From an uncultured bacterium (GTDB lineage Bacteria; Fidelibacterota; Marinisomatia; Marinisomatales; UBA1611), in the NCBI GenBank assembly GCA_964586315.1, contig CAZPHE010000002.1, positions 31,706 to 95,705 of the forward strand: DNA of 64,000 bases, read 5' to 3'. Positions 7,377 to 61,994 of this stretch are shown here, piece after piece. The notes under the pieces are model-generated. The model made no database searches and was not told the origin of the DNA. It worked only from the letters and a program-made list of their open reading frames with translations. Within the stretch, counting starts at the first letter, position 1. Every line of letters begins with the position of its first letter. The translations under genes and the position numbers were made by a program.

Positions 7377-8625
7377 ATTTTACCAATTACTGAATTCACT
7401 TTATTCCCTTCAAAGAAAAGGGATCAAACTCGGTCTTAGCCATACTCGCAGGCTATTAAATTTTTTAGGGAGCCCTCAACATAATTTTAAAATAATCCAC
7501 GTTGCAGGCACCAATGGAAAAGGATCAACATGTGTTCATATTGAAAGTATTTTGCGAGAAAATGGTTACAATGTGGGTTTATACACATCTCCCCATTTAA
7601 TAAAATTTAATGAACGCATTAGAGTTAATGGTATTCCTATTACCAATCATGACATTGTTCATTTCATGGATTTTGTTAAAAATGAAATAAAAAAAATACG
7701 ATCTACTTTTTTTGAAACTACAACTGCAATGGCTTTAGATTATTTTAATAAAAAACATATTGATGTTGCTGTTATTGAAACAGGTTTGGGTGGTAGGTTA
7801 GATGCCACAAATATAATAAAACCATACCTTACTGTTATGACACCGATTTCGATGGATCATATGGAAATCCTTGGAGACACTATACAAAAAATTGCTAAAG
7901 AAAAGGCAGGGATCATTAAAAAGAATATACCCTTAATTACTGCTCCTCAGATTCAAAAAGTGATGAATATTCTTGAAAAGAAAGCATTAGAAAAAAATAC
8001 AACAGTTATTCTTTCCGATTCTCCATCCTCTATTAAAATTACTAATCAAGGGACTACATTTTCACTTGGAAAACATACTATCACTACACCACTTCTTGGC
8101 TGTCATCAAGCTATTAATGCATCTTTGGCAATTTCTGCAACAAAATATTTTTGTTCAGATATAATACAAAAAAAAATAAATAAAGGGTTGAAGAATGTTG
8201 TCTGGCCAGGACGGATGCAAAAAATTTCGGAAAAAATCTATTATGATGTCGCTCATAATGAAGACGGAATTAAAAGAACATTAAATACAATAAAAAATCT
8301 GTATCCCAAATGTAACCTTTATGGATTGTTCTGTATTAAACAAAATAAAAATATTAAAAATATAATTGGAGTGATTTCAGGGCAGTTTAAGCAAGTTTTT
8401 GTATTGAATGATAAAAATGATTTATTAATTAATGCAACAGAGTTATATAAAAAATTAAAAGATTTCGGTTTTAAGAGTACTCCTGTTAAATCGATTAAAA
8501 GTGGTCTGATTCAGATTAATGGCTTTGGTGATGAAACAGGGATTACATTGATTTTTGGATCTCATTATATAGCTAAGGATATTTTTACTGCATTTGAAAT
8601 ATCTTTTGACTCAGTTAAAATTTGA
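7363..8625 (+). CDS. folC: bifunctional folylpolyglutamate synthase/dihydrofolate synthase
   Basis: Mur-ligase P-loop '[11 protein letters not shown]' and '[12 protein letters not shown]'. TTG start overlaps the murI end. Confidence 0.85.
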
Positions 8626-8701
8626 TGTAATTTTAGTCTACTCTGCTATTCCTGCCGAGTGTATTAATTTTTCTAGAATATATATAATAGGTGTAAAATA
8701 T

Positions 8702-9952
8702 ATGAATCTTAATGAATTACAATCTTTGCATATTCGTGAACTCACAGAATTAGCTCAAAAATTAAATGTTTCTGGCAATATTGCAGGCCTTAATAAACAA
8801 GAACTAACAATTAAAATTCTTGAAGCAAATGCAAAAAAAGAAGGGGCTTTTTCTGCTCGTGGTGTTTTAGAAGTTATGCAAGATGGATATGGGTTTCTTC
8901 GTTCGCCAGATTTTAATTATATGCCTGGGCCAGATGATATTTATGTTAGCCCATCTCAGATTAAACGATTTGGTTTAAAAACTGGGCACTTGGTATCAGG
9001 GCAAATAAGACCTCCAAAATCTAAAGAACGTTTTTATGCTTTATTAAAAGTAGAAACTGTTAATTCATCGCCAATTGATAAACTTCAGGATATAATATTA
9101 TTTGATAATTTCACTCCATTATATCCAGAAGAAAAATTCAATTTAGAAACAAAGTCTAAAGATTTATCTATGAGGATTATGGATTTAATATCTCCTATAG
9201 GTAAAGGGCAAAGAGGTCTGATTGTTGCCCAGCCAAAAACAGGAAAAACAATTCTAATGCAAAAATTAGCTAATTCTATTAGTGAGAATCATCCAGAAAC
9301 AAAAAGAATTGTTTTGTTAATAGATGAACGACCTGAAGAAGTGACAGATATGAAAAGGAATGTTAATGCAGAAGTCATCAGTTCTACATTTGATGAGCCA
9401 CCTGAGCGTCATGTGTCTGTAGCAGATATGGTTCTCCAAAAGGCAAAAAGGATGGTTGAATATGGAGATGATGTAGTGATTTTACTTGATAGTATCACAC
9501 GTTTAGCAAGGGCTCATAATGCTGTTATTCCACATAGTGGGAAAATTCTCTCAGGTGGAGTCGATTTTAATGCACTCAAAAAACCAAAACAATTTTTTGG
9601 TGCAGCGCGAAATACAGAGGAGGGCGGAAGTTTAACTATTGTTTCAACGGCACTTATTGATACTGGCAGTAGGGCTGATGAAGTGATTTTCGAAGAATTT
9701 AAAGGCACTGGTAATATGGAGCTTGTTCTTGATCGTAGATTAAGTGATAGAAGAACTTATCCAGCTTTCGATATAATTCGTTCAGGAACTAGAAAAGAAG
9801 AATTACTTCTAGGTCGTAAAGAATTAGGTAGAATGTGGATTCTTCGTAAACTTCTCAATGACATGAAGGTTGAAGAAGCTATGGAATTCATGCAAGATAG
9901 AATGAAACGTACAAAATCTAATGATGAATTTCTTGATACAATGAGCCAATAA
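8702..9952 (+). CDS. rho: transcription termination factor Rho
   Basis: '[21 protein letters not shown]' Rho N-terminal helix bundle, an OB-fold region, Walker A 'AQPKTGKT' and '[20 protein letters not shown]'. I use the ATG at 8702 rather than the track start at 8594. Confidence 0.95.
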
Positions 9953-43482: not shown

Positions 43483-45732
43483 TTATTTTTGAATTTTGAG
43501 CTTATCCCCAGATTTAGGTTTATTAACAATAATATTTAAATCCCATATTTTAATAGCATGTTGGATAAGGATTACTTCATTATCATGAATAAACTCATCT
43601 GCGTTAGCAATATCAATAAAACAATTGATTAGTGTTATAAGCTGATCAATATTTATTTTTTCAGATTCTTTAATAAATTTTAGTGAATCATCAAATTGTT
43701 TTTGTCGAAGATCTTCACTTTTTAAATTAATAAATTTATTAGTTGCTTGGCCAAAATCTATATTAAAGTTTTCATTAGTGAGGTCTGGAATAAAAATTTT
43801 GTAGCTATCAAAGATAACACTTTTTTCTGATTCGTCTATTTCTTGATCTGCAAAAAATGCAATGCAAAGTAAAGAATAAAGAATATCATTATTTATTGTC
43901 CAACTCTTTTCTGTTTCTTCATCACTATCTCTTGCAGAAATTTTCCTTTGTAATTCTTCCATTCTTTCTTTATCGGCATCATTTAAATAGCCATCTTGTC
44001 GCTGGCGTTTTTGCATAAGTTTATCAACTTCGAGAGTTAAAAACTTTACATCACGTTGTAACGCTTCAAGTCGTTTGTCCATTAAACCAAATAACAACTT
44101 TTTAAATGGTTCTATTTGATCTTTTTCAGGAGCAAAATAAATGTTCAGATTTCCTCGATCTGTGTCCTCCCAAAATGTTGGTCCAAATATTGAAAGTAAA
44201 AAACATTGAGTGTTTGCATTGGCTTTGAATGTTTTCTCATCAAAATAAGCTAGATCATCTAAATAATCTTCAGCAATAGCTTCAGCAAATTCTAAGTTTT
44301 TAACAGATAAGTAAAAGAGGGCTAACCCAATTTGTATTCTACGTGTACCATTGTTGCCACCAAGTATGCCTTTATCTACTCCATCTTTAGAATAGCCAGG
44401 TGGTTTATCTAGCTGTAAAATCATTTGAAGAAGATACAATTGGTCTTCTTTTTCCCATTCCATTTCATGTATTATGACTTGACATTTTCTAAGTTCAAAA
44501 GTTAAAGTGTCTACTATAAAATAAAGGGATGGATTTAATGCTGAATTCTTATATATATCATTAGCATAAAATTTAAATTTATCGTAACAATATTTGGCCA
44601 TGTCTACTCGATTTGATCTTATATACTCTTGGATCATATTTGAATAATGGAATGCAAGATTGTATAAATTTCGTGGTTCATTATTTTTATATGCATGTTT
44701 CATGGCAAATCTGAATAATGTATTAAATCGAATGTTTACATTATCTAATATGGTATCGTTATTACTATCAAGACAAGTCTTGCCTATATCCACAAGTTCT
44801 GCAGGTATTAATGATGCTATATCAAAACGATCATTTTCAATCATTTTTATATATGAATTACCCAAAAGGCGAAAAACTTTTACTTCGTAAAAGGTTTTAT
44901 TATCAGCCATTTCATTATATTGCAGATCAGTATATGTTCTGAATGTTGCATTTTCTCTTATGACTGATGTAAGAGTAAACAATTGATTATTAAAGCGAGG
45001 CTTCTCTTTAATATATAGTTGGATGATTTTACTTATTTGCCTGATAATCTCTGTTTGGGTTTCTTTGAAGTCTGTAAATGCTAAAAGATCATCTAGTTGG
45101 TCTAATGATCCCATAATTTCTTTTTGATATTCTTTTACAACTTCTAAATCATTACTCATTGCAGATTGAATCATAGATTTTCTCATATTATAAATAAAAT
45201 TTTGAATAATTGATGAAATAGTAGCTACAACATTGCTTGTTTTTGAATACAGTAAAATGTAAAAAATATATGGGAGTGTAAATATAGATGCTAAAAATAG
45301 ATAAATATATGTATTTAACACTGAACTGGATACTCTTCCTAGAGGTTCTACGTAAAACATGATAAGTACAGCGTGAAGAGAAGCTAGAATTAGAAACCAA
45401 ACGTAGATTAGGCTTAACCAATCTTTAACAAATAAATCCATTAATTTGGGAGATGATTCTGCTGCGATTGCAATCACGATAATAAGGGTACCTAGTACCA
45501 TCGCAAGAACTCCTCCCCAGATTTCCGGAGCAAAGGTTAAATCAACATCATTCGGATTTGATATGTCGACATTAAAGGTGTTAATTATAAATTCTACTAA
45601 AGATGGGAAGTAGGCATAGAATGCTATATCCGAAATAACCATTAATATAAAAACAATGATGCAGGAAATAATAGTTCTATATTTGAACTGCAGACTATTT
45701 AGCCTAACAAAAGATGCGTAAAATTTATCCAT
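43483..45732 (-). CDS. membrane protein: DUF2254-like N-terminal TM region, large helical middle part, coiled coil and a C-terminal TerB-like domain
   Basis: Four to five N-terminal TM helices with 'AAESSPKLMDLFVKDWLSLIYVWFLILASLH' (DUF2254-like 'SPR..r.f..D'). The C-terminal 140 aa carry 'FFADQEIDESEK...ANADEFIHDNE'. Confidence 0.55.
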   Translation of the reverse strand: MDKFYASFVRLNSLQFKYRTIISCIIVFILMVISDIAFYAYFPSLVEFIINTFNVDISNPNDVDLTFAPEIWGGVLAMVLGTLIIVIAIAAESSPKLMDLFVKDWLSLIYVWFLILASLHAVLIMFYVEPLGRVSSSVLNTYIYLFLASIFTLPYIFYILLYSKTSNVVATISSIIQNFIYNMRKSMIQSAMSNDLEVVKEYQKEIMGSLDQLDDLLAFTDFKETQTEIIRQISKIIQLYIKEKPRFNNQLFTLTSVIRENATFRTYTDLQYNEMADNKTFYEVKVFRLLGNSYIKMIENDRFDIASLIPAELVDIGKTCLDSNNDTILDNVNIRFNTLFRFAMKHAYKNNEPRNLYNLAFHYSNMIQEYIRSNRVDMAKYCYDKFKFYANDIYKNSALNPSLYFIVDTLTFELRKCQVIIHEMEWEKEDQLYLLQMILQLDKPPGYSKDGVDKGILGGNNGTRRIQIGLALFYLSVKNLEFAEAIAEDYLDDLAYFDEKTFKANANTQCFLLSIFGPTFWEDTDRGNLNIYFAPEKDQIEPFKKLLFGLMDKRLEALQRDVKFLTLEVDKLMQKRQRQDGYLNDADKERMEELQRKISARDSDEETEKSWTINNDILYSLLCIAFFADQEIDESEKSVIFDSYKIFIPDLTNENFNIDFGQATNKFINLKSEDLRQKQFDDSLKFIKESEKINIDQLITLINCFIDIANADEFIHDNEVILIQHAIKIWDLNIIVNKPKSGDKLKIQK
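43486..43905 (-). other. TerB-like C-terminal domain of the 749-aa membrane protein (paralogous to the ORF at 46018-46449)
   Basis: Blockwise alignment with the 143-aa ORF: 'F[FL]AD[QG]E[IV]DESEK', 'PD[LV]', 'KFI[ND]L', 'A[NR]AD[ED]FIHDNE', 'I[QE][HQ]A'. Confidence 0.6.
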
Positions 45733-46017: not shown

Positions 46018-46449
46018 ATGGCAAACTGGAGTCAACACCACGATTTGGTGTATGCTTTTGTGTGTGTATCATTTCTCGCAGATGGGGAAGTAGATGAATC
46101 TGAAAAAGAGGCTATGCGTGGCAATGTCAAGGTTATGTTGCCCGATGTATCTGACGAAGGATACAATGCAATTGAAGCCGAAGTAATTGATAAATTCATT
46201 GATCTTGGAGATGAAGATTCGAGGATGAATCAATATGGTCAGTCTTTGAATGCTCTGAAAGATATGTTTACTTCTGATGATGATCGTTACAAGGTTGTAA
46301 AAAACCTAGCTTACATTGCACGAGCTGATGATTTTATTCATGATAATGAAATGGCGATGATTGAACAGGCAGTGAGTTCCTTGGATATGGTAGGCAAAGT
46401 AAATCTTGTCAAAACAGATTCTACTCTTTTTGTTGATCCTACATTCTAA
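46018..46449 (+). CDS. stand-alone TerB-like domain protein (143 aa)
   Basis: SD 'tAAGGTGAtattATG'. 'SFLADGEVDESEKEAM' is the TerB/DjlA-N-type acidic motif. Visibly higher G+C than its surroundings. Confidence 0.65.
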   Translation: MANWSQHHDLVYAFVCVSFLADGEVDESEKEAMRGNVKVMLPDVSDEGYNAIEAEVIDKFIDLGDEDSRMNQYGQSLNALKDMFTSDDDRYKVVKNLAYIARADDFIHDNEMAMIEQAVSSLDMVGKVNLVKTDSTLFVDPTF

Positions 46450-46530: not shown

Positions 46531-46716
46531 ATGGAAGAACATAGAGGAAAAGGGACATCAAGAAGACAAGATGAAAGACGCTCTGAGCATAGAAGGCAGT
46601 CACATCGAAGGAAAGAAAACGCACAAATTGATGAAGACAGACGTCAAACTCTAGATCAGAGAGCAGGCTATCAGAGAAAATTGAATAGACGCAGTGGTGC
46701 AGAACGAAGACATTAA
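46531..46716 (+). CDS. Arg-rich mini-protein (61 aa) with an (RRxxx) pentad repeat
   Basis: 'SRRQDERRSEHRRQSHRRKE...EDRRQTLDQR...NRRSGAERRH'. Followed by a perfect bidirectional terminator. Coding status is not proven. Confidence 0.45.
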   Translation: MEEHRGKGTSRRQDERRSEHRRQSHRRKENAQIDEDRRQTLDQRAGYQRKLNRRSGAERRH

Positions 46717-46722
46717 ATAAAA

Positions 46723-46755
46723 TTAGAAAGGGCAGTGAGTTTCTGCCCTTTCTAA
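46723..46755. terminator. bidirectional Rho-independent terminator between convergent genes
   Basis: 'TTAGAAAGGGCAG tgagttt CTGCCCTTTCTAA': a perfect 13-bp stem (46723-46735 and 46743-46755) with a 7-nt loop. Confidence 0.8.
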
Positions 46756-46783
46756 CGTATTGTATAATTTAGAGTTTAGATTA

Positions 46784-47452
46784 TTAACAATGAACTCGTT
46801 CCATACCTGTTAAAAAGTTATTTAATGCATCCAATGCAATATCTACAGATTTAAGAATCTCTTTGTGTTTTTCTTTGGAATTATTTAGTTCTTCTAACAA
46901 ACTTCTTACAACTTTTCTATGCCATTTATCTGCATGGATATGTACAGTGAAAAATTTTAGAGCATTTTCATCCCTAATACCATAGAACTTTTTTAAGCCT
47001 TCTTTTTTTGTTTCTGAAATTTCGGGTTGCATAGATTCATAGCAATAAAGAGCGGCGAGACCTATGTGGTATTGTGTTGATTTAGAAAGGTTTGTAAAAG
47101 TTTTAACAAGATCATCAGTTTCTTTCATTGAAATTGTAGTTTTTATTTTATCACGACTATTACCCAAACCTTCAGCGAAGCGCATCCAAAGTTCTGGATG
47201 GTTTTCATCTCCTTTCTCTTCTTCAACTAAATTCTCTAAAAGGATTTGACGAATCCGTATATTATCACAATTTGAATGAATAGCAGATAAATACCTTGGA
47301 AAAGATGATACATGTTTAAAATATTGTGCAGAATATTCTTTAATAGTTTCTTTTGGTAGAGCACCAGAGTTCCAGGCTTGGTAAAATGGGTGTTTTAACA
47401 AATGCTTTTTTTCAATTTTTGCATCTATTTTATCAATAAATGTGATGTTCAT
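46784..47452 (-). CDS. heme-oxygenase-like di-iron protein of the PqqC/CADD/TenA_C family
   Basis: 'HPFYQAWNSGALPKETIKEYSAQYFKHVSSFPRYLS' and 'HIHADKWH' are typical of CADD/PqqC-like proteins. Confidence 0.7.
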   Translation of the reverse strand: MNITFIDKIDAKIEKKHLLKHPFYQAWNSGALPKETIKEYSAQYFKHVSSFPRYLSAIHSNCDNIRIRQILLENLVEEEKGDENHPELWMRFAEGLGNSRDKIKTTISMKETDDLVKTFTNLSKSTQYHIGLAALYCYESMQPEISETKKEGLKKFYGIRDENALKFFTVHIHADKWHRKVVRSLLEELNNSKEKHKEILKSVDIALDALNNFLTGMERVHC

Positions 47453-52465: not shown

Positions 52466-52927
52466 TTAGATAGGAATTAAAGTTTGATTTCTATTATTAT
52501 AAAATAATATTAGATTGTAAATTAATTTAAAAATTGCCTTTACACCTTGGATGTATTGTAATTATTTAAAATAATTTACAATAAGACCATTTTAAATTTT
52601 TAAATCTTAGATGCTGATTATTCTTAATATACCCTCTATAAATATTAAAATTCAGATTTATTATATTTTAAAAATATTAAAATATAATTTCTCCCATTTA
52701 GTATTTAAATACTATTTACAGATATAATGATTATAAATAATAAATAAATAAATTTAGCTCATCTTTGTTTTTATTTTATATTTTAACGGAAATAACACAA
52801 TGTTGTAATTATAATCAATCCTTGTAAACAATAGTCTCGATACAATAAATTCAGGAAATTACTTTTCCCGGGGTAATACATGATGCGGAATCAATACATA
52901 TTAGTGGGTAAACCACTAAACCAATTA

Positions 52928-52948
52928 AATGGCTATATAATAGCCATT
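52928..52948. promoter_or_regulatory. 9-bp inverted repeat 30 nt upstream of the giant ORF start (candidate operator or 5'-UTR hairpin)
   Basis: 'AATGGCTAT ata ATAGCCATT': arms 52928-52936 and 52940-52948 are exact reverse complements. The function is inferred only. Confidence 0.3.
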
Positions 52949-52977
52949 CCTAAGTCCAATTATTTTAATTCAGAAAA

Positions 52978-55900
52978 ATGAGTAAAAAGCAAAAAGATAT
53001 TGTAATTATTGATGATTACAGAATTGTAAAAATTCTTAATAAAAATTTTACAAAAAAGATCCTAAAATCTTTTTCTGATCAGCCTAAAACAGCCACCGAA
53101 ATAGCGAATTCAATTTCATTCCCAAAAGAAAAAATTTATTATCACTTAAAAAATCTCCTAAGCAACAATATTCTTTTTATCAAAAAAACTGTAAAGGTAA
53201 AAGGTATAGAACAAAAATATTTTTTACCTACCGGAAAATCTTTTCAAATAAAAAGTAATAATAATGAACCTTATGTTTCAAATGAAATAAATAACCAAGT
53301 TCAATTGGAAAAAGAAAATCAGGAAAAAATAAATAATACAATTGAAAATAAAAATTTAAGTCATAACCAACATGTAAGAAAAATTATTGATAGGAGAAGG
53401 AATACAAATCGAAGAACAATTCAAAGGAGATTTTTAAAACCCCGTCGTGGAAATCAAAACCAAAAATTTTTACGTAAAAACAAAAGAAAAAATTCTGAAA
53501 GAAGAATCAATGATGAAAATAGAATTAATAATAAAAGAAGAAAAGTCTCTGAACGTCGAACAAATTATGATTTTGGTGTTGATATCCCAAAGAAAAAGTA
53601 TAAACAAAAACGGTATAAACCATATCCCCCCCAAAAAATAACACATAAAAATTTATTACTTCAACTGAATGGTGTAAAAAATGCCATGACTTTTGTACAA
53701 TCTAATAATATAGTAACCTTTTTGTATTGTACCTTAAAACAAAATGGTTTTGAAATAATACATATTAACAATTATCGGTTACCTATAAAAATAAAAGGTC
53801 ACCAAATAAAAACTCTGCCTGAATTAATTATCAACATCTATAATCAATTTATAAATCCTAGATCAAAGAAGAAAACCTTTCTTGCCATCCAATCTGATAA
53901 TTATCAATGTGAAATGACCTATTTTATAGGTAAAGGTAAGAGCGATAAACTTTTTCGAAAAAACATAATGGAAACGTTAAATGAAGCTTACAGGGTAAAA
54001 AAGGAAAATAGCTTGATGGATTTTATTAGGTATTATGATGGTCAAAAAAATTCTACGGTATGCTATTCTTCAAAAAAATCACAGATAGAAGAAGACTATA
54101 AAAATCTAGATGCTGCAGGGATTCCTTTAAGGTATATAACTTCAATCCCTAAAATATTGAATAACATATACACCTACTATAATTTAGAAAAAAATAATAA
54201 AACATCACTCCTTATATATATAGGTCACATTAAAACACATACAGTGTTCACTTTTGGCGATAGAATAGTTGAATCCCGTGAAATTGATAAAGGACTTAAT
54301 TTTTTTACCGAACCTTTGGCCGAATTATCACTAACTAGGGTCATTCATGATCAGGCTTTGCATGAAGCAACACATTTTTTATCATATTATGGTTTAAGCC
54401 CAGAATCTTCAAACACAAATATTCAAGATGGATTCCCTTTTAAAAAGGCAAAAGCGATTATAAATCATTTATCCCTTAGTTTTCTCTATGATATAAAAGA
54501 CTCCATTCAATATTTTGAAAGCATTCTAATAAAAGAAAGGTATACTGAAAAACCAATTTCAAAAATTTTTATCACGGGCCCAGGAAGTCACATAAAATAT
54601 CTTGACAAGACAATAGAAGAAATGTTTCGTGTTTCTGTAAAGAATTTTTCTCAAATCTGTGATGCACTACTTAAGGGTAATAAAAATCTAAATGGACCTG
54701 TATATAACAGATTTAAAGAAAAATTTTTATATAGAAAACAAGAAAGTTCTGAATCAAGTTTAAAAGAATTAAAACAAAAAATAAAGAACCATGAAGATGC
54801 CATTGAATCAACACAGAGTCCTGAAAGCGCGAAGTACAGTTTAGCACGTTTAGAAATTGAAAAAAATTCTAAAATCAAATCTATTGATTCGGCTAGTAAA
54901 AATTTAAGCTCTACAGCCCAAGAATTTAAAGATCTGAAAGAGAAATATGTTAAAACACAAGAGACCTTAGGATCTGATCTAAAATCAATTAATTCCCAAG
55001 TTGAAAATCTTAGTGAAGAATTGATTTATAAGTATAGTCAATATGATGAGATCAATAAAAAAATATCAGAATTAGAATTTGAAATAGACCAAGAAAAGAA
55101 TAAGAAAGATAAAATTCAACGCGAAGAAAAAAATCGCTATGGATCACAAATTAAAGCTGTGGCACAATCTCGAGCAAAATTAACAGATGATAAAGATTAT
55201 ATTGAACAAGAAATTGATGAACTTGAATCTAGTATAATAAAATATCAAGATTTATTTCACCAAAAAAATTATAAAATACAAAATGGACAGGATGAGATCG
55301 CTGTATTTGAATATTTAAAAAGCTCAATACAAAATGTTGCAAATATTTTTAAACGGTCTTTCCTAGTTCATTTAAAATCTTTAGAAGATCTTAATAAAGA
55401 TGATGTAAATACACTTCAAAAAGCTGGATATTTTATCACTAGTAATACAAAAAGGATTGATGAAATAAGAGAATCATTTAATGCTTTTATCTCTGGAGAG
55501 ACTAGTATTAATCCAGATCAAATGATAGATAATGAAAACGGAATCGCAATAAAGGAAAAATTGTTGGATATATTGAGCTTGGTTCAAAAGGCACCTGATG
55601 ACTTAATACATTTAAAAAATTTATCAACCACTATTGTAAAAATTAATGAAGATCAAAGTGATCTTAAAATGCAGAAGGAAAAACTCTCAAATCAAATAAT
55701 AAAATCAAAGAACAATATTAGAGAGAATCAGGGAACACGTTTTTCTATTAAAAGAGATATTGAAATCCATAAAGAAAGTTTAACAGAAAAAAGTAAGGAC
55801 AGGTCAGAAAGAATTGATGTACTGAATTATATTCGTGAGAGAATAGAGTTGAATGATGAATTTGATTATCATACAAAGCTTCTAAAAGAAATACAGCCTC

Positions 55901-58900
55901 AGAAAAATAAAAAGATAAAAAAATTAAAAAGTTTAAATAATCAAATTCAGGAAACCAAAGGCTCTATTAAAAGATTAGATCAATCATTTGAAGGATTAGA
56001 AATTGAAAATGCTGAAGTAAACCACTCTTGCCAAAAAAAGAAAAGAGACCTAAACGATCAAATCGAATTTTTCACAAAAGATACTGAACAAATAAAAAAC
56101 AAATTCAATGATAATGTAGATAAAGGAGATGCAATATCTATAGAAATCTCTAATGGGAAAACTTATATAGATCAATTAGAAAAACACTGTGTAAATAAAA
56201 AAGTAGAATTGGAAGATCTAAATCAAAAAAAGGTGCCAATTGTTAATAAATCCATAGAAGATAAGAAGCAAATAATTAAGGCATATGAAAAGAAATTAAA
56301 AATTTTAGATAGAGAACAAAATCAAAAAACATCTAAGGCTCAAAAAACTAAAAAGATCACAATTAAAGCCTTTTTTAAAAAAGAATTAGAAATGCTTAAA
56401 AAGGATTACAAAAACCTCGAAAAAAGTATTGATAAAATTAAGAAAGAGAAAGAAAAGGCATTACTTGAAAAGAATAATGCCACTGTATCCTTAGGTAATA
56501 TTAAAAAGAAAAAAATACCTCAGATAACATTATTGAAAAAACAAATAAAGAATTGGGAGATAGATATCAAGCGCGGACGAAGAATCCAAGAAAGATTAGA
56601 TCAACTTGAAATTAAAAAAGCACATTGGGATCAATTATTAGAAACTGAACAAAAAAATCATACAGAACAAATTGAATCTTTAGAAAAAAGTATAAATAGG
56701 AAGAGTTCTGATCAATATCTTGGTTTTCTGAAGGATGGTTTAAATCGTTTTAATAATGATGGTAATTTAGATGAGATTGCAAAAAAAATGTCACAAGAGA
56801 GTATCGATCTAGATCTTGAAACAATAAATAAGCTCAATATCAATTTTAAAAAATTCAAACAAACACATAATACATTTTTGAAAGGGTATAAAAAAAGAAG
56901 CAAAGAAATTTTACTAAAGCTAAAACCTTTTGGTGGAAAGAAAAAAATAATCCTAGCAAAAATTAAGAGCGCAAAAGATAAGCTTAGAAGCGCAGAATCT
57001 TTAATGCAGGAATATGTTAATAGACTGAATAAAAAGGTTAAAATTTTAAATGAAAAGAGAGAGATATTTTTAGAAAAAAAAGAAAATGCACGATCAAAGA
57101 TTGCAGATATCAAATTACAAATAAGACAAATTCCTGAAAAGGAGAACCGTGCAATTATTGATGTTGAAAAACAGTTAGTACAAATACCATTAGATATTGC
57201 TAAAGATAAAATGAATTTGGAAAATCAAAAGAAAGAAGATTTATTAGCAGTTGATATTTGGTTAGCGAATCAAGATAATATGTTAGACATTAATAAAGCA
57301 GAAGACAAGATTGTGTATTATTTTAATGAAATCGAAAAAAATAATAGAAAAATTGAAGAACTGAAAAACAAACAGAAAAAAATACTAGGTACAAAATTGT
57401 CCTTAGAGAAAGAGTTAGAAAGCATATCAAAAAAAATTACAGCTTGTCATTCAATGGGTAATGAAATTGAAGAACAATTCAAAGTAGATAGTTCTGAATT
57501 AAAAGAAAAGATTGCTAACAACAGAGGAGAATATGCTGCTTTTGAAAAACAACTTGACGAATTGAAGAATCAAAAAGAAAATTTAGAACTTGATATTGAA
57601 AAGATAGAAAAAGAATTCAAAACATCAGATGTTATTGTAAAAAAGACAAAAAAAGATATCTCTAACCATGAACAGATCTCCGATAGTATTAATATAAATA
57701 ATAATGAACACAAATCTAATCCGAGGGAATATCGGGAATATCTATCTGAAGTTGAAAAAGATATATTAAATGATATAGAACATTCAGAAAAAATGATCAC
57801 AGAAATAAATCGTGCTTTAGACACAATGGATAATGATATATCAATTCTCAATAGTACGATAAACTTGAATACAAATGATTTGGAATTGTATGAAAGAGAT
57901 TTTTCTAGAGTAGAGACATTGATCGAAAATAACAAACAACATCTAAAAAAAATATCCACAGAACACCAGAAATCATTAAATAGCATAGTAAGAATTAAAG
58001 ACTTATACCCACCAAGTAAGATTATGCTTAATGAACGTATATCTAATCTTTACACGCTAATAGAGTTAAAAGTAAAAGATAAGGATAATTTGGAACAGGA
58101 GCTTGACTCGTTAGATGAAAAACTGAAAAACAAAAGAATTGAAATAGCAATGATAGATCAGGAAATATCAAAAATTCATGAAGAAATGAAACATGCACTT
58201 GAATATTCATTTCATGAAAAAGATGAAGAATCTGTAGAGAATAAATGGAAGTGGGAAATTGGGAATTATAAAATGAAGACCTATCTTGATATCGCAACTC
58301 TTAAAACAGATTCTAAAGATTTATATTGCCAGATTACAGAAGCCGAAGAGACAATAGCAGAATTAAAACAGAAACAATCATCCGTTAATAATCTCCTTTC
58401 TGAATCTGAAAAAATAAATCTTAATAAAATAAAAAAGATGGAAGATACTTGTACACGATTAGAGCTTCAAATAACACGAGAAAAGAATGAATTGAATGAA
58501 ATTGAAAAAAAGGTAAATCAGTTAGAGAATTTGCCCATCAACTATGGTAATCGGATCGAAGCTCTTAAAGTAGAACTAAGGAATTTTAAAGATCAGGAAG
58601 CGGAGTATGAATTATTGCTGAATGACTTAGGTAGATCAATAGAATCTATAGAAAAGGAGTCAGATAAAATTATTAAAAGTCGTAACACGATTAAAGATAA
58701 TACAATAGATCTTGATTACATGGCGAATCTTGGTTTATTGATGGACCCATATTCAAAACTAAATCTCTTGCCGGATACACCTAAGAAAGACTTTAACTAT
58801 TTTAGATCAAATCAAATTTTTCAAAGAGCCATACTTATTTTAGTAACAGTTTTTTCTCTAGGAGCGTTTGCCCATCGGACTGAAATAAAGCCATTGAAGA

Positions 58901-59334
58901 CCCAACTGCCAATAAAGCAATCTGAGCTAACTCTTCTGAATATGCGTCAAAAAATGAAAGAAGTTGTCAAAAATAAAAATGTGCTTTCCAACAATTTCAG
59001 CAAGTTTATATACGATGATGAAAAAATATCTTCTGATATAGTCTCTTTATTGAAATATCTTAGTAAAAATATACCGAAGAATTATAAAGTAATTAATTTA
59101 ACTATTGACAAAAATAAGCCGGATTTTCTCGATGAAAGTACTGATTATGAATTTTCCAGTTTAAATATTACTCTAAATGGGTTTTTCGAAAACAGTTTAG
59201 AAAAATCATCCAGATTAGCCAACAAATTAAAAACATCCTTAGAAGAAAGTAATTTGTTTAAAAGTGTTGCTTTGAGTCATGGGAAAAAACAAAAAAAATT
59301 AAAAACGGAATACACTATCCAATTAGTTTATTAG
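52978..59334 (+). CDS. giant (2118 aa) fusion protein: wHTH, Arg-doublet repeat, PilM-like actin-fold domain, ~1350-aa coiled coil, TM helix and PilN-like periplasmic domain
   Basis: One uninterrupted 6357-nt ORF. The segment-by-segment motif reading is given in the sub-features. It heads a PilO-like, PilP-like and secretin gene series. Confidence 0.75.
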   Translation: MSKKQKDIVIIDDYRIVKILNKNFTKKILKSFSDQPKTATEIANSISFPKEKIYYHLKNLLSNNILFIKKTVKVKGIEQKYFLPTGKSFQIKSNNNEPYVSNEINNQVQLEKENQEKINNTIENKNLSHNQHVRKIIDRRRNTNRRTIQRRFLKPRRGNQNQKFLRKNKRKNSERRINDENRINNKRRKVSERRTNYDFGVDIPKKKYKQKRYKPYPPQKITHKNLLLQLNGVKNAMTFVQSNNIVTFLYCTLKQNGFEIIHINNYRLPIKIKGHQIKTLPELIINIYNQFINPRSKKKTFLAIQSDNYQCEMTYFIGKGKSDKLFRKNIMETLNEAYRVKKENSLMDFIRYYDGQKNSTVCYSSKKSQIEEDYKNLDAAGIPLRYITSIPKILNNIYTYYNLEKNNKTSLLIYIGHIKTHTVFTFGDRIVESREIDKGLNFFTEPLAELSLTRVIHDQALHEATHFLSYYGLSPESSNTNIQDGFPFKKAKAIINHLSLSFLYDIKDSIQYFESILIKERYTEKPISKIFITGPGSHIKYLDKTIEEMFRVSVKNFSQICDALLKGNKNLNGPVYNRFKEKFLYRKQESSESSLKELKQKIKNHEDAIESTQSPESAKYSLARLEIEKNSKIKSIDSASKNLSSTAQEFKDLKEKYVKTQETLGSDLKSINSQVENLSEELIYKYSQYDEINKKISELEFEIDQEKNKKDKIQREEKNRYGSQIKAVAQSRAKLTDDKDYIEQEIDELESSIIKYQDLFHQKNYKIQNGQDEIAVFEYLKSSIQNVANIFKRSFLVHLKSLEDLNKDDVNTLQKAGYFITSNTKRIDEIRESFNAFISGETSINPDQMIDNENGIAIKEKLLDILSLVQKAPDDLIHLKNLSTTIVKINEDQSDLKMQKEKLSNQIIKSKNNIRENQGTRFSIKRDIEIHKESLTEKSKDRSERIDVLNYIRERIELNDEFDYHTKLLKEIQPQKNKKIKKLKSLNNQIQETKGSIKRLDQSFEGLEIENAEVNHSCQKKKRDLNDQIEFFTKDTEQIKNKFNDNVDKGDAISIEISNGKTYIDQLEKHCVNKKVELEDLNQKKVPIVNKSIEDKKQIIKAYEKKLKILDREQNQKTSKAQKTKKITIKAFFKKELEMLKKDYKNLEKSIDKIKKEKEKALLEKNNATVSLGNIKKKKIPQITLLKKQIKNWEIDIKRGRRIQERLDQLEIKKAHWDQLLETEQKNHTEQIESLEKSINRKSSDQYLGFLKDGLNRFNNDGNLDEIAKKMSQESIDLDLETINKLNINFKKFKQTHNTFLKGYKKRSKEILLKLKPFGGKKKIILAKIKSAKDKLRSAESLMQEYVNRLNKKVKILNEKREIFLEKKENARSKIADIKLQIRQIPEKENRAIIDVEKQLVQIPLDIAKDKMNLENQKKEDLLAVDIWLANQDNMLDINKAEDKIVYYFNEIEKNNRKIEELKNKQKKILGTKLSLEKELESISKKITACHSMGNEIEEQFKVDSSELKEKIANNRGEYAAFEKQLDELKNQKENLELDIEKIEKEFKTSDVIVKKTKKDISNHEQISDSININNNEHKSNPREYREYLSEVEKDILNDIEHSEKMITEINRALDTMDNDISILNSTINLNTNDLELYERDFSRVETLIENNKQHLKKISTEHQKSLNSIVRIKDLYPPSKIMLNERISNLYTLIELKVKDKDNLEQELDSLDEKLKNKRIEIAMIDQEISKIHEEMKHALEYSFHEKDEESVENKWKWEIGNYKMKTYLDIATLKTDSKDLYCQITEAEETIAELKQKQSSVNNLLSESEKINLNKIKKMEDTCTRLELQITREKNELNEIEKKVNQLENLPINYGNRIEALKVELRNFKDQEAEYELLLNDLGRSIESIEKESDKIIKSRNTIKDNTIDLDYMANLGLLMDPYSKLNLLPDTPKKDFNYFRSNQIFQRAILILVTVFSLGAFAHRTEIKPLKTQLPIKQSELTLLNMRQKMKEVVKNKNVLSNNFSKFIYDDEKISSDIVSLLKYLSKNIPKNYKVINLTIDKNKPDFLDESTDYEFSSLNITLNGFFENSLEKSSRLANKLKTSLEESNLFKSVALSHGKKQKKLKTEYTIQLVY
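53005..53247 (+). other. winged-helix (ArsR/MarR-like) DNA-binding-type domain of the giant protein (aa ~10-90)
   Basis: 'IVKILNKNFTKKILKSFSDQPKTATEIANSISFPKEKIYYHLKNLLSNNILFIKKTVKVKGIEQKYFLPTG' has the helix-turn-helix plus beta-wing pattern of ArsR-type wHTH domains. Confidence 0.55.
53374..53559 (+). other. Arg-doublet repeat region of the giant protein (aa 133-194)
   Basis: 'RKIIDRRRNTNRRTIQRRFLKPRRGNQNQKFLRKNKRKNSERRINDENRINNKRRKVSERR': RR doublets spaced 3-5 residues apart. Confidence 0.7.
53641..54657 (+). other. PilM-like (actin/HSP70-fold) domain with degenerate nucleotide-binding motifs (aa ~222-560)
   Basis: Colinear with PilM blocks. 'AMTFVQSNNIVTFLYCTLKQNGFEIIHINNYRLP' corresponds to the 'GIDISSTSVK' region. 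'LLIYIGHIKTHTVFTFGDRIVESREIDKGLNFF' corresponds to 'VVDIGATMTTL...GG..LT'. 'KIFITGPGSHIKYLDKTIEEMF' corresponds to 'IVLAGGTA'. Confidence 0.6.
54745..58740 (+). other. ~1330-residue K/E/N/I/L-rich predicted coiled coil (aa ~590-1921)
   Basis: Heptad-like charged/hydrophobic periodicity and sparse Pro/Gly by eye. One candidate break, 'LKPFGGKKK', lies near aa 1317. Confidence 0.6.
58741..59334 (+). other. pilN: complete PilN-like module (aa 1922-2118): Met, 'LNLLP' peptide, TM helix and periplasmic domain
   Basis: 'MDPYSKLNLLPDTPKKDFNYFRSNQIFQRAILILVTVFSLGAFA' contains the PilN-type N-terminal [IL]NLLP motif (nt 58759-58773) and a TM helix (nt 58828-58872). The 197-aa length equals a typical free-standing PilN. 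Confidence 0.65.
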
Positions 59335-60305: not shown

Positions 60306-61994
60306 ATGAAATACTTAATAAAAATAGTAAAAGTCTGCTGGCATATTTTGATCTGTTCTTCCTTGGTTGGTCAAACGCAGGGCTTTAAGTACAATCTGTT
60401 TCCTGCTTCCCCTAAGCTTAAAGATATTTATATTTCTGAAGAAAAAAAATCATATGTAATGACAATGGAATTTAATGGAACAAACTTTGATTATGTAACC
60501 AGTGAAAATTTTGCACCTCCTAGTATAACTTTATTGTTTAAAAATGTAGAATGGGATAGGGGAAATTTCACTCAAAAATGTGATCAAAATCCGCTTTACC
60601 AGTATTCTTTGAGTATTCCTAGAAATGCAAATCAGAAAGAGATCGATAAAAGACTGCGTTTAAAATTGGATTTTACGCGAATACCAGAATACAAAATAAA
60701 GCTTGAGCCTGGAAAAGGTAAAAAGAAGAAACATAAACTAAAAATTATATGGAATAAGAAGAATGAAAAAAAGAAGCCACAGAGATATGCATCTTCAAAT
60801 AAACGACTGCCACCATCTCGTGTAAGTTTAAATTTCCAAAATGCAAAATTGGTGAATGTGGTCAGAATGCTTGTATCTCAGGATAACCTGAATCTTATTA
60901 TGGGTGAAGATGTGGAAGGTCGGGTCACAGTGAGTCTATCAGATGTTTTATTAGAAACAGCTTTGGATGCCATCCTTCATGTCAACAATTACGAATGGTT
61001 TATCCAAGACAATATTATCATAATTCAACCTATGACAACAAAAAAAGTATTAAGTGGGGAATTATCGACTCGCATGTTTAGGTTGAATTATATAAATGGA
61101 GATATGGCAACAGAAGCTGTTAAAGAGGTGCTATCATCACGAGGGAAAATAAAGGCTATATCATCAACGGCATCAACCAATGTGGAGCCCGGAGAAAAAG
61201 ATATATTATTGGTTACAGATTTACCAACAAACTTTTCTCTGATAGATGGAGTTATTAAATCACTTGATGTGAAGAGTGATCAAATCAATATTGCTGTGAA
61301 ATTTGTTGAGACGGCATTGAAGCATGATGAGGTAATAGGCATCAACTGGGATCTAAGAGAACAGATGAGCATTATTAAAAGTGGAGATACCGATACCTCA
61401 AAAACCTTTGACTTGGGTTATTTGATGTTAGGTGACCAGACTATGAACTTTGCAACCTTAAGCAGACCGGTTGTTAGTGCAATACTTTCTCTTCTGGCTC
61501 AGGATGGAAGTACAAAACTTCTCCAAGAACCTCAAGTGACTACTACAAATAATTCTCCGGCAAATATTGTTGTTGGCACAACAATACCAGTACTGGTACC
61601 TCAGGGAGAGGGCAGTGTTTTTGGAACCAATCCGTATACATATGAAAACCAACATATAAATATATCACTTGATGTTTTACCAAGAGTGAATGAAGAAAAA
61701 ATTATAAGTATGAAGATTGATGCTGTGGTTCAAGATATTATTGGTTTTATTGGAAAAGATCAGCGTCCAATGATCTCGACTCGATCTACCAATACAACAG
61801 TAAGAGTGCATAATGGAGAGACCCTATTAATCGGTGGATTAATATTTGATACAGCAGACGAAATTAATTCAAAGGTTCCATTACTGGGGGATCTTCCGCT
61901 TATAAAAAGATTATTTAATTATAGTAGTAAAGATAAAGAGCAGCGAGAATTATTAATCTTTATAACACCCACTGTTATTTCTAGTGATGTATAG
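60306..61994 (+). CDS. pilQ: secretin (PilQ/GspD family) with an AMIN-like N-terminal region
   Basis: Secretin C-domain 'TTVRVHNGETLLIGGLIFDTADEINSKVPLLGDLPLIKRLFNYSSKDKEQRELLIFITPTVI'. N0/STN-like 'NFQNAKLVNVVRMLVSQDNLNLIMGEDVEGRVTVSL'. Confidence 0.85.
   Translation: MKYLIKIVKVCWHILICSSLVGQTQGFKYNLFPASPKLKDIYISEEKKSYVMTMEFNGTNFDYVTSENFAPPSITLLFKNVEWDRGNFTQKCDQNPLYQYSLSIPRNANQKEIDKRLRLKLDFTRIPEYKIKLEPGKGKKKKHKLKIIWNKKNEKKKPQRYASSNKRLPPSRVSLNFQNAKLVNVVRMLVSQDNLNLIMGEDVEGRVTVSLSDVLLETALDAILHVNNYEWFIQDNIIIIQPMTTKKVLSGELSTRMFRLNYINGDMATEAVKEVLSSRGKIKAISSTASTNVEPGEKDILLVTDLPTNFSLIDGVIKSLDVKSDQINIAVKFVETALKHDEVIGINWDLREQMSIIKSGDTDTSKTFDLGYLMLGDQTMNFATLSRPVVSAILSLLAQDGSTKLLQEPQVTTTNNSPANIVVGTTIPVLVPQGEGSVFGTNPYTYENQHINISLDVLPRVNEEKIISMKIDAVVQDIIGFIGKDQRPMISTRSTNTTVRVHNGETLLIGGLIFDTADEINSKVPLLGDLPLIKRLFNYSSKDKEQRELLIFITPTVISSDV

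Follow-up and report, generated by a model that had tools for sequence, protein, structure and literature searches.

A conserved arginine-doublet string in a giant PilM-like protein and in a small TerB-linked protein of Marinimicrobia

In a stretch of 64,000 nucleotides from an uncultured bacterium (contig CAZPHE010000002.1, positions 31,706 to 95,705 of the forward strand; the whole stretch is called the window here), two predicted proteins carry a string of arginine doublets (RR) whose arginines are fixed position by position and are hardly ever exchanged for lysine. One is a giant PilM-like protein of 2118 amino acids, encoded by an open reading frame (ORF) at 52978..59334 (+); the other is a mini-protein of 61 residues (46531..46716, +), encoded next to a gene for an acidic TerB-domain protein. 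Both strings are predicted to be disordered. From this we infer, tentatively, that they are forms of one arginine-specific module, similar to the arginine-rich motifs (ARMs) of RNA-binding peptides, which may bind a polyanion and most likely a nucleic acid.

Residues 133-194 of the giant protein (nt 53374-53559) read VRKIIDRRRNTNRRTIQRRFLKPRRGNQNQKFLRKNKRKNSERRINDENRINNKRRKVSERR and include seven doublets. The mini-protein, which reads MEEHRGKGTSRRQDERRSEHRRQSHRRKENAQIDEDRRQTLDQRAGYQRKLNRRSGAERRH, also has seven in total, and four of these (R11R12, R16R17, R21R22 and R26R27) follow each other at an exact spacing of five residues. An RR-doublet repeat common to the two proteins had been reported in a first-pass annotation of this DNA, and its coordinates, sequences and five-residue spacing were confirmed. 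In all six frames of the window, the pattern RR-x(3,5)-RR-x(3,5)-RR matches the giant module and the mini-protein only; with the gaps widened to 2-6, matches in six-frame translations of 13 related loci stay confined to orthologues of both proteins. The Arg fraction is 0.31 in the giant module and 0.28 in the mini-protein; the window proteome has only 0.039, with a Lys fraction of 0.090, so that K is there 2.3 times commoner than R (window G+C about 31%). The doublets exceed what these compositions alone give, with seven against 4.3 in same-residue shuffles of the giant module (P=0.027) and seven against 3.6 in those of the mini-protein (P=0.003), and RR dipeptides elsewhere in the window are at expectation (24 observed, 29 expected). 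The remaining basic stretches of the window are dominated by lysine (K 7-11 and R 1-5 per 30 residues), as the annotation had also stated, and the sole further RR-x-RR within its long ORFs is LDRRLSDRR, in the C-terminal part of the Rho factor (ORF 8594-9952). Neither the giant module nor the mini-protein has a match in Pfam, NCBIfam or the PDB, the limits for the mini-protein being E up to 10 in Pfam, E up to 1 in NCBIfam and E up to 10 in a PDB profile search. A profile of the giant module alone, run against a collection of 5.8 billion proteins, gave 489 candidates, none of them at E<=1, and no further protein contexts. As far as searched, the module is confined to Marinimicrobia (SAR406), an abundant and uncultured group whose cell biology is essentially unknown.

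The giant gene was found in 13 genome loci, in which all taxon-named records belong to Candidatus Marinimicrobia (Neomarinimicrobiota), and the relatives of the first 641 residues of its product are marine metagenome proteins. Among 15 orthologues the module (amino acids 133-196; 53374..53565, +) has the consensus RKINERRRxN[DE]RRxxxRRxxxxRRx6FxGxxKRxxxxRRxxxDQRxxxxRRxxxDRRF. Counted over its 18 Arg columns, the residues are 260 R, 3 K and 7 others (96% R, 1% K), and R134, R139, R140, R146, R176, R182, R187 and R188 are invariant at overall identities of 28-55%. The mean pairwise identity of the orthologues is 0.60 in the preceding winged helix-turn-helix domain, 0.11 in the linker before the module, 0.40 in the module, 0.18 in the Lys-rich linker after it and 0.56 in the PilM-like domain; inside the module, it is 0.86 at the R columns and 0.23 at all other columns. 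AlphaFold gives residues 94-230, which comprise the linker and the module, a predicted local distance difference test score (pLDDT) of 28-49, corresponding to predicted disorder. In these alignments the module stands out as an island of position-specific arginine conservation inside a fast-evolving linker.

That the arginine runs are selected had been proposed on the grounds that Arg is codon-expensive in an AT-rich genome. The proposal is borne out by the conservation of the Arg positions in the orthologues, and the argument behind it is imprecise, since the A-rich codon AGA accounts for 10 of the 19 Arg codons of the giant module (G+C 27%) and 10 of the 17 of the mini ORF. A better argument is that the change of AGA to AAA (Lys) requires one transition and is almost never seen, which shows selection of the guanidinium group and not of charge alone. 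Such intolerance of Lys in a Lys-rich proteome points to guanidinium-specific contacts, for example with phosphate, guanine or, in bidentate form, carboxylate, and not to bulk charge.

Some peculiarities of the giant module deserve mention. A deep subgroup of its orthologues (L010-L012 and P0007) has a shortened form, RxIIDRRRSNDRRNxDNPLxVNxxGxxNKRSVIxRRxxIERRI, which keeps the first and the last doublets and lacks DQR along with the third and fourth doublets. At 53496-53542 lies a weak tandem repeat of 18 nt (2.6 copies, 75% match), which underlies 'SERRINDENRINNKRRK' and suggests that the C-terminal half of the module grew through duplication of a six-residue unit. A recent tandem expansion of the DNA was rejected, as this weak repeat is the only one in the module and the mini ORF has none. 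The segment 'QRRFLK' (amino acids 148-153) was also considered as a twin-arginine translocation (Tat) signal, which requires S/T-R-R-x-F-L-K at the N-terminus, then a hydrophobic h-region and an AxA cleavage site. This reading was rejected, in that the segment is internal, is followed by PRRGNQNQK and has no hydrophobic h-region; its FLK is not kept in orthologues either (RRLSS, RRNSF, RRVTI).

The mini-protein (pI 11.5) belongs to a family of its own. Sixteen homologues of 58-98 residues were found, and a profile search of 1.84 billion protein representatives yielded 26 representative clusters, of 40-98 residues save for one singleton of 145. The family consensus, MEEHREKxxSRRxNDRRxxHRRSEHRRKENxxVDxERRxxxDQRKGYQRKxNRRSGxERR, has 21-25 invariant positions, and in 19 mini-proteins the tally for the 16 Arg columns is 287 R, 5 K and 10 others. 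Start and length of the gene are conserved across the family, and an AGGA-type motif resembling a ribosome-binding site (AGGAA; AAGAA in L016) lies 6-11 nt 5' of the ATG in seven of the eight loci shown. In seven DNA orthologues the proportion of non-synonymous differences (pN) is 0.07-0.36 against 0.29-0.98 for synonymous ones (pS), with synonymous sites near saturation, and the ratio of the corresponding rates (dN/dS), where computable, is 0.1-0.3, as under purifying selection. These features mark the mini ORF as a real protein-coding gene, in agreement with the first-pass annotation. AlphaFold predicts disorder for its product as well (pLDDT 57.7, predicted TM score 0.13), with two short helices only. 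The G+C content of the mini ORF is 42%, in a region of about 31-34% where a nearby stretch falls to 24-29%; its difference from the giant module is due to the non-Arg residues and to the use of CGN and AGG codons.

Directly 3' of the mini stop codon lies a strong bidirectional hairpin terminator (46722..46756) with a stem of 13-14 bp and six GC pairs, which is shared with a convergent TENA/haem-oxygenase-like gene (46784-47452). The hairpin, GGGCAG...CTGCCC, is present in the window and in L001, L013 and L016; L015 has only its 3' arm, L018 and L019 have a related hairpin, and L014 has none after the called stop. A leader-peptide or attenuator function of the mini ORF was rejected because nothing lies downstream to regulate, the terminator and the convergent gene being what follows; the conservation of non-Arg positions (MEEHR, GYQRK, NRRSG) also speaks against it. 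An extension of the TerB protein into the mini ORF by read-through or frameshift was equally rejected, as the two ORFs are separated by TAA and TAG stops and their relative frame varies by locus.

The similarity between the two strings goes beyond composition. In a profile alignment by hhalign, positions 11-49 of the mini family pair with positions 7-54 of the giant module (E 2.3e-4, score 23.1, probability 44%), such that RRxNDRRxxHRR falls on RRxNxRRxxxRR and RRxxxDQR on RRxxxDQR. This score is reached by one of 300 column shuffles that preserve the doublets and by none of 300 plain column shuffles, and the reversed-sequence controls score 13.9 and 16.1. Since these controls are lower, the likeness in order and direction exceeds what composition and periodicity provide, and the shared grammar that the annotation had noticed is upheld. 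It is plausible that both modules have a common origin or have converged on one binding register. Common origin is nevertheless unproven, since a search with the mini profile alone failed to bring up the giant proteins.

These results also bear on the possibility that there is nothing specific to explain, in other words that two low-complexity segments are alike by compositional coincidence and that the small ORF is no gene. The low complexity of both segments, the modest hhalign probability and the empty word search of a large database with the module profile would be expected in that case. On the other hand, the length, start, RBS-like motif and terminator of the mini ORF are conserved and its dN/dS is low at saturated synonymous sites; the Arg columns are held at 28% overall identity; the pattern is absent elsewhere in the window and in the 13 loci; and both the shuffle and the reversal controls score lower. 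Coincidence is thus largely refuted and very improbable.

The composition and context of the two strings are perhaps best accommodated by nucleic-acid binding. The RR doublets of the module recur about every 5-6 residues, often with D, E or H before them, and a central RR-x3-DQR is shared. With Arg at 28-31% of residues, predicted disorder and arginines that Lys does not replace, it resembles the ARM class in sequence; ARM peptides are disordered before binding, and they bind a structured RNA specifically and with high affinity, folding as they do so. In the giant protein, the module starts about 40 residues past a well-conserved winged helix of DNA-binding type, which it would extend, and the cytoplasmic N-terminus of a PilM/PilN-like scaffold would then hold DNA or structured RNA. 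The mini-protein would be a free-standing copy of the module, made together with the acidic TerB-domain protein and perhaps under its control. Were this so, an envelope scaffold of the PilM/PilN type would be tethered by its cytoplasmic end to DNA or RNA, with a bearing on DNA uptake or on the positioning of the machine; no canonical PilM structure matched is so arranged.

ARM peptides such as those of lambda N and P22 N, which bind boxB, and of HIV-1 Rev and Tat are likewise short and dense in Arg, contain interspersed E, D, Q or H, are disordered alone and require Arg and not Lys. The P22 N stretch 'TRRHERRRK' resembles 'EHRRQSHRRKE' of the mini-protein in local grammar, a likeness of use as a lead only. 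However, ARMs have one Arg cluster within 10-20 residues and form a functional class, not a homologous family, whereas here 7-9 regular doublets spread over about 60 residues are kept together as one block, both in a chromosomal scaffold protein and in a mini-protein linked to TerB. The basic disordered tails of nucleoid proteins (mycobacterial HupB, chlamydial Hc1 and Hc2) are also repetitive, basic and of low complexity, and bind DNA electrostatically. These tails are rich in Lys and Ala and tolerate exchange of K and R; the present modules, by contrast, have fixed Arg and interleaved acidic residues. A further bacterial case is that of atypical Rho factors, in which a disordered region rich in Arg and Asp adjoins a folded nucleic-acid-binding domain. 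According to one report (PMC11347177), the Rho factors of M. tuberculosis and M. luteus gain RNA affinity from their Arg-rich insertions, and the Arg-rich disordered region of B. thetaiotaomicron Rho drives phase separation. Such insertions have no conserved register, only short motifs of the RxR type, whereas positions are fixed in the modules described here. The Rho encoded in the window (8594-9952) matched no domains beyond the usual Rho_N, Rho RNA-binding and ATPase ones and, save for LDRRLSDRR, has no Arg-rich stretch. The two segments are closest in kind to ARMs and to the basic disordered extensions of nucleic-acid-binding domains, from which they differ in their fixed register, their 7-9 doublets, the interleaved acidic residues and His, and their contexts.

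Several observations weigh against nucleic-acid binding by a common module. The mini-protein contains 11 acidic residues, so that its net charge is only +9, and three invariant His, of which the giant module has none; such acidic residues and invariant His are odd for a simple nucleic-acid clamp. The sole constant genomic partner of the mini gene encodes an acidic protein, not a nucleic-acid enzyme. As regards the unity of the module, the hhalign probability is only 44%, one shuffle scored above the real alignment, and the mini profile failed to retrieve giant proteins in the search of 1.84 billion representatives. A fusion to an RNA-binding domain does occur once: in the 145-residue singleton (P0048; L022:158-595) an S4 RNA-binding domain and the start of a pseudouridine-synthase-like domain are fused, in frame, with an entire mini-protein sequence. 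This fusion lies outside the TerB context, on one contig and as one cluster member. If genuine, it would point to RNA binding in the Rosetta-stone sense; an assembly chimera is possible, and the fusion was not used as evidence.

The most constant feature of the mini gene, which the first-pass annotation missed, is its TerB neighbour, and this supplies a different explanation. A gene for a TerB-domain protein of 142-143 residues (in the window TerB143; 46018..46449, +; Pfam TerB E 8e-9) lies about 75-95 nt 5' of the mini gene on the same strand in every contig with upstream sequence available (L001, L005, L013-L020 and L023), the most divergent members included; on short contigs only a fragment of TerB is seen. 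TerB143 is 80-91% identical across loci and is thereby the most conserved gene of the neighbourhood, above ABC-F (56-64%) and above GS and the secretin too. A terminator between the TerB and mini genes was looked for and none was found, so co-transcription of the two is probable. The convergent TENA/haem-oxygenase-like gene usually follows. A divergently transcribed gene (43483-45732) encodes a membrane protein of 749 residues that ends in a similar TerB domain (ADEFIHDNE as against ADDFIHDNE), and TerB143, this membrane protein and the mini gene may form one functional unit.

It is accordingly possible, if rather doubtful, that the RR string mediates docking to an acidic protein, the TerB domain in particular, and that the mini-protein folds onto TerB143. 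The giant module might then compete for the same TerB surface and in this way couple a TerB-type stress or metal sensor to a pilus or secretin scaffold. In the genomic context of the mini family, only the succession of TerB and mini gene never varies; no terminator intervenes, the charges are opposite (TerB143 with pI 4.2 and net charge -17, the mini-protein with pI 11.5), TerB143 is highly conserved, a second TerB domain is found on the divergent membrane protein, and the preference for Arg over Lys would also suit bidentate salt bridges to carboxylates. The giant gene, however, is not strictly linked to TerB, as in L007 and L010-L012 no TerB was found in the 8-10 kb preceding it (for L010-L012, the TerB-mini pair was not found in 8.7-10 kb of upstream sequence), and the adjacency of the TerB and mini genes would also fit a pair of regulator and effector, with nucleic acid still the ligand of the latter. 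TerB docking and nucleic-acid binding are also compatible, as TerB might serve as a mimic or a regulator.

A broader proposal would combine the two. The RR string would be a lineage-specific and hitherto undescribed interaction module of fixed register (an 'arginine ruler'), read by acidic TerB, by structured nucleic acid or by both, and the free 61-residue copy would be a TerB-controlled competitor or regulator of the copy in the giant protein. A stress sensor of the TerB type would thereby be connected with the tethering of a SAR406 secretin or pilus machine to the nucleoid or to RNA. It is an unlikely proposal as it stands.

Binding of an anion other than a nucleic acid, either small or polymeric, is also to be considered; the candidates are cyclic di-GMP (c-di-GMP), polyphosphate and an oxyanion tied to TerB biology. 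The Arg-specific conservation, the invariant His adjoining RR in the mini-protein (HRR-x2-HRRK) and the link of the TerB family to tellurite resistance are consistent with it. Regulation by c-di-GMP is common among type IV pilus machines, and this dinucleotide is bound by the RxxxR motif of PilZ and the RxD and RxxD motifs of BldD. The PilZ site (RxxxR with [D/N]xSxxG) shares with the modules Arg three positions apart and the association with type IV pili; the modules, on the other hand, are predicted to be disordered and have neither a beta-barrel nor the [D/N]xSxxG partner. PilZ (PF07238, a six-stranded beta-barrel) and other c-di-GMP domains were therefore rejected: up to E 10 there is no PilZ match to the giant protein, its module or the mini-protein, AlphaFold predicts no barrel, and no MshEN, GGDEF I-site or further known c-di-GMP-binding domain or motif was found. 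The earlier remark that no PilZ fold is evident thus stands. Moreover, nine doublets over 64 residues far exceed the needs of one dinucleotide site, and no positive evidence was obtained for any of the candidates, which makes an anion of this kind quite improbable as the ligand.

Still less likely is that the module binds anionic membrane lipids or is a mere charged spacer. The Arg string would then keep the PilM-like domain attached by its N-terminus to the inner leaflet, and the mini-protein would sit at the periphery of the membrane and act with the membrane TerB protein. Proteins of the PilM type act at the cytoplasmic membrane face, Arg binds the head groups of phosphatidylglycerol and cardiolipin better than Lys, and the 749-residue TerB protein in the neighbourhood is a membrane protein. 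Nevertheless, the strings have no hydrophobic or aromatic residues in an amphipathic-helix arrangement, 18 position-conserved Arg columns together with DQR and F-x-G are more than a spacer needs, and the giant protein is already anchored by a transmembrane helix at residues 1947-1965.

Whichever ligand applies, the mini-protein represents an uncharacterised family of small proteins with a fixed partner in TerB, and the pair is a simple two-protein system in which to ask what a TerB domain binds. In the literature searched, no description was found of an Arg-rich small protein with TerB, nor of a matching ARM-type small basic protein of bacteria. The practical value is modest and consists in two clean, synthesisable peptides, together with R-to-K controls, that are now defined; no long-standing question hinges on the finding, and its functional side is inferential.

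The giant protein is unusual in its own right. Its domain order is a winged helix, a disordered linker with the RR module, a PilM fold, a coiled coil of about 1,350 residues, one transmembrane helix (the hydrophobic segment at 1947-1965) and a C-terminal part of 150 residues, so that a winged helix, a PilM fold, a coiled coil, a membrane anchor and a periplasmic end are placed in a single chain. The probable ArsR-like winged helix-turn-helix (amino acids 1-91; 52978..53250, +) is matched in Pfam by HTH_5 and HTH_20 (E 3e-4 to 5e-4), HTH_5 with 21.1 bits, just short of its cut-off of 22 (PF01022). In the PDB, a profile of 13 orthologues matches the ArsR-like regulator PH1932 (1uly) at E 1e-6, and AlphaFold predicts an H-H-H-beta-hairpin pattern for the domain, with a pLDDT of about 80-87. 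The PilM-like actin-fold domain (amino acids 235-560; 53680..54657, +) is modelled with a pLDDT mostly of 76-93 per 10-residue block, with dips to 63-73. Its top Foldseek matches are P. aeruginosa PilM (5eoy and 5eou), the model of the type IVa pilus machine (3jc8, chain Ma) and the PilM-PilN complex (2ych), at E 3e-15 to 7e-12 and TM-scores (target) of 0.55-0.66; FtsA and MreB rank behind. The NCBIfam model TIGR01175 (pilM) scores 17.1 bits (E 2e-3), far under its cut-off of 133 bits. The protein is, by its modelled fold and its operon context, PilM-like and not a scored member of TIGR01175, and it is these two lines that justify the label. The coiled coil gives weak matches of the SMC type.

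A secretin gene of the PilQ type (60306..61994, +; Pfam Secretin E 6e-44, plus STN) lies downstream. The order of giant gene, 184-aa gene, 137-aa gene and secretin is kept in 12 of the 13 genome loci, the remaining one (L011) ending before the last two genes, and this context shows the giant protein at the head of a pilMNOPQ-like cluster. With the PilM/PilN platform of type IVa pili it has in common the actin-like PilM fold, a transmembrane helix in the same chain and a gene cluster that ends in a secretin. Canonical PilM, in contrast, has about 350 residues, lacks the winged helix, the Arg module and the 1,350-residue coiled coil, and is separate from PilN; none of the PilM structures matched by Foldseek carries such an N-terminal extension. 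The literature searched yielded no PilM-PilN fusion spaced by so long a coiled coil, no PilM with a helix-turn-helix domain and a coiled coil, and no account of a PilM from Marinimicrobia.

The intergenic region upstream of the giant gene (52790-52981) contains a block that is conserved in all 12 of the aligned Marinimicrobia loci. It includes the pair CTTGTAA ... TAAATTT[GA], which is promoter-like and of the Bacteroidota type; a near-invariant leader, ATTACTTTTTCCGAGGTAAT-AATGATGTGGAGTCAAT, comes after it, followed by two hairpins whose sequence varies by locus. A search of Rfam with the leader found nothing, and its RNAalifold consensus has only -1.4 kcal/mol and little covariation. A short upstream ORF starts at a conserved ATGATG (52880 in the window), encodes MMW[SN]Q... 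and runs for 30-33 codons, with only about the first five residues of its peptide conserved. In two loci it reads on in frame and in three it has only eight codons. Its stop codon falls within -4 to +5 nt of the giant ATG in 10 of 14 loci, as an ATGA overlap in the window, which suggests a translated leader coupled to the giant gene by termination and reinitiation.

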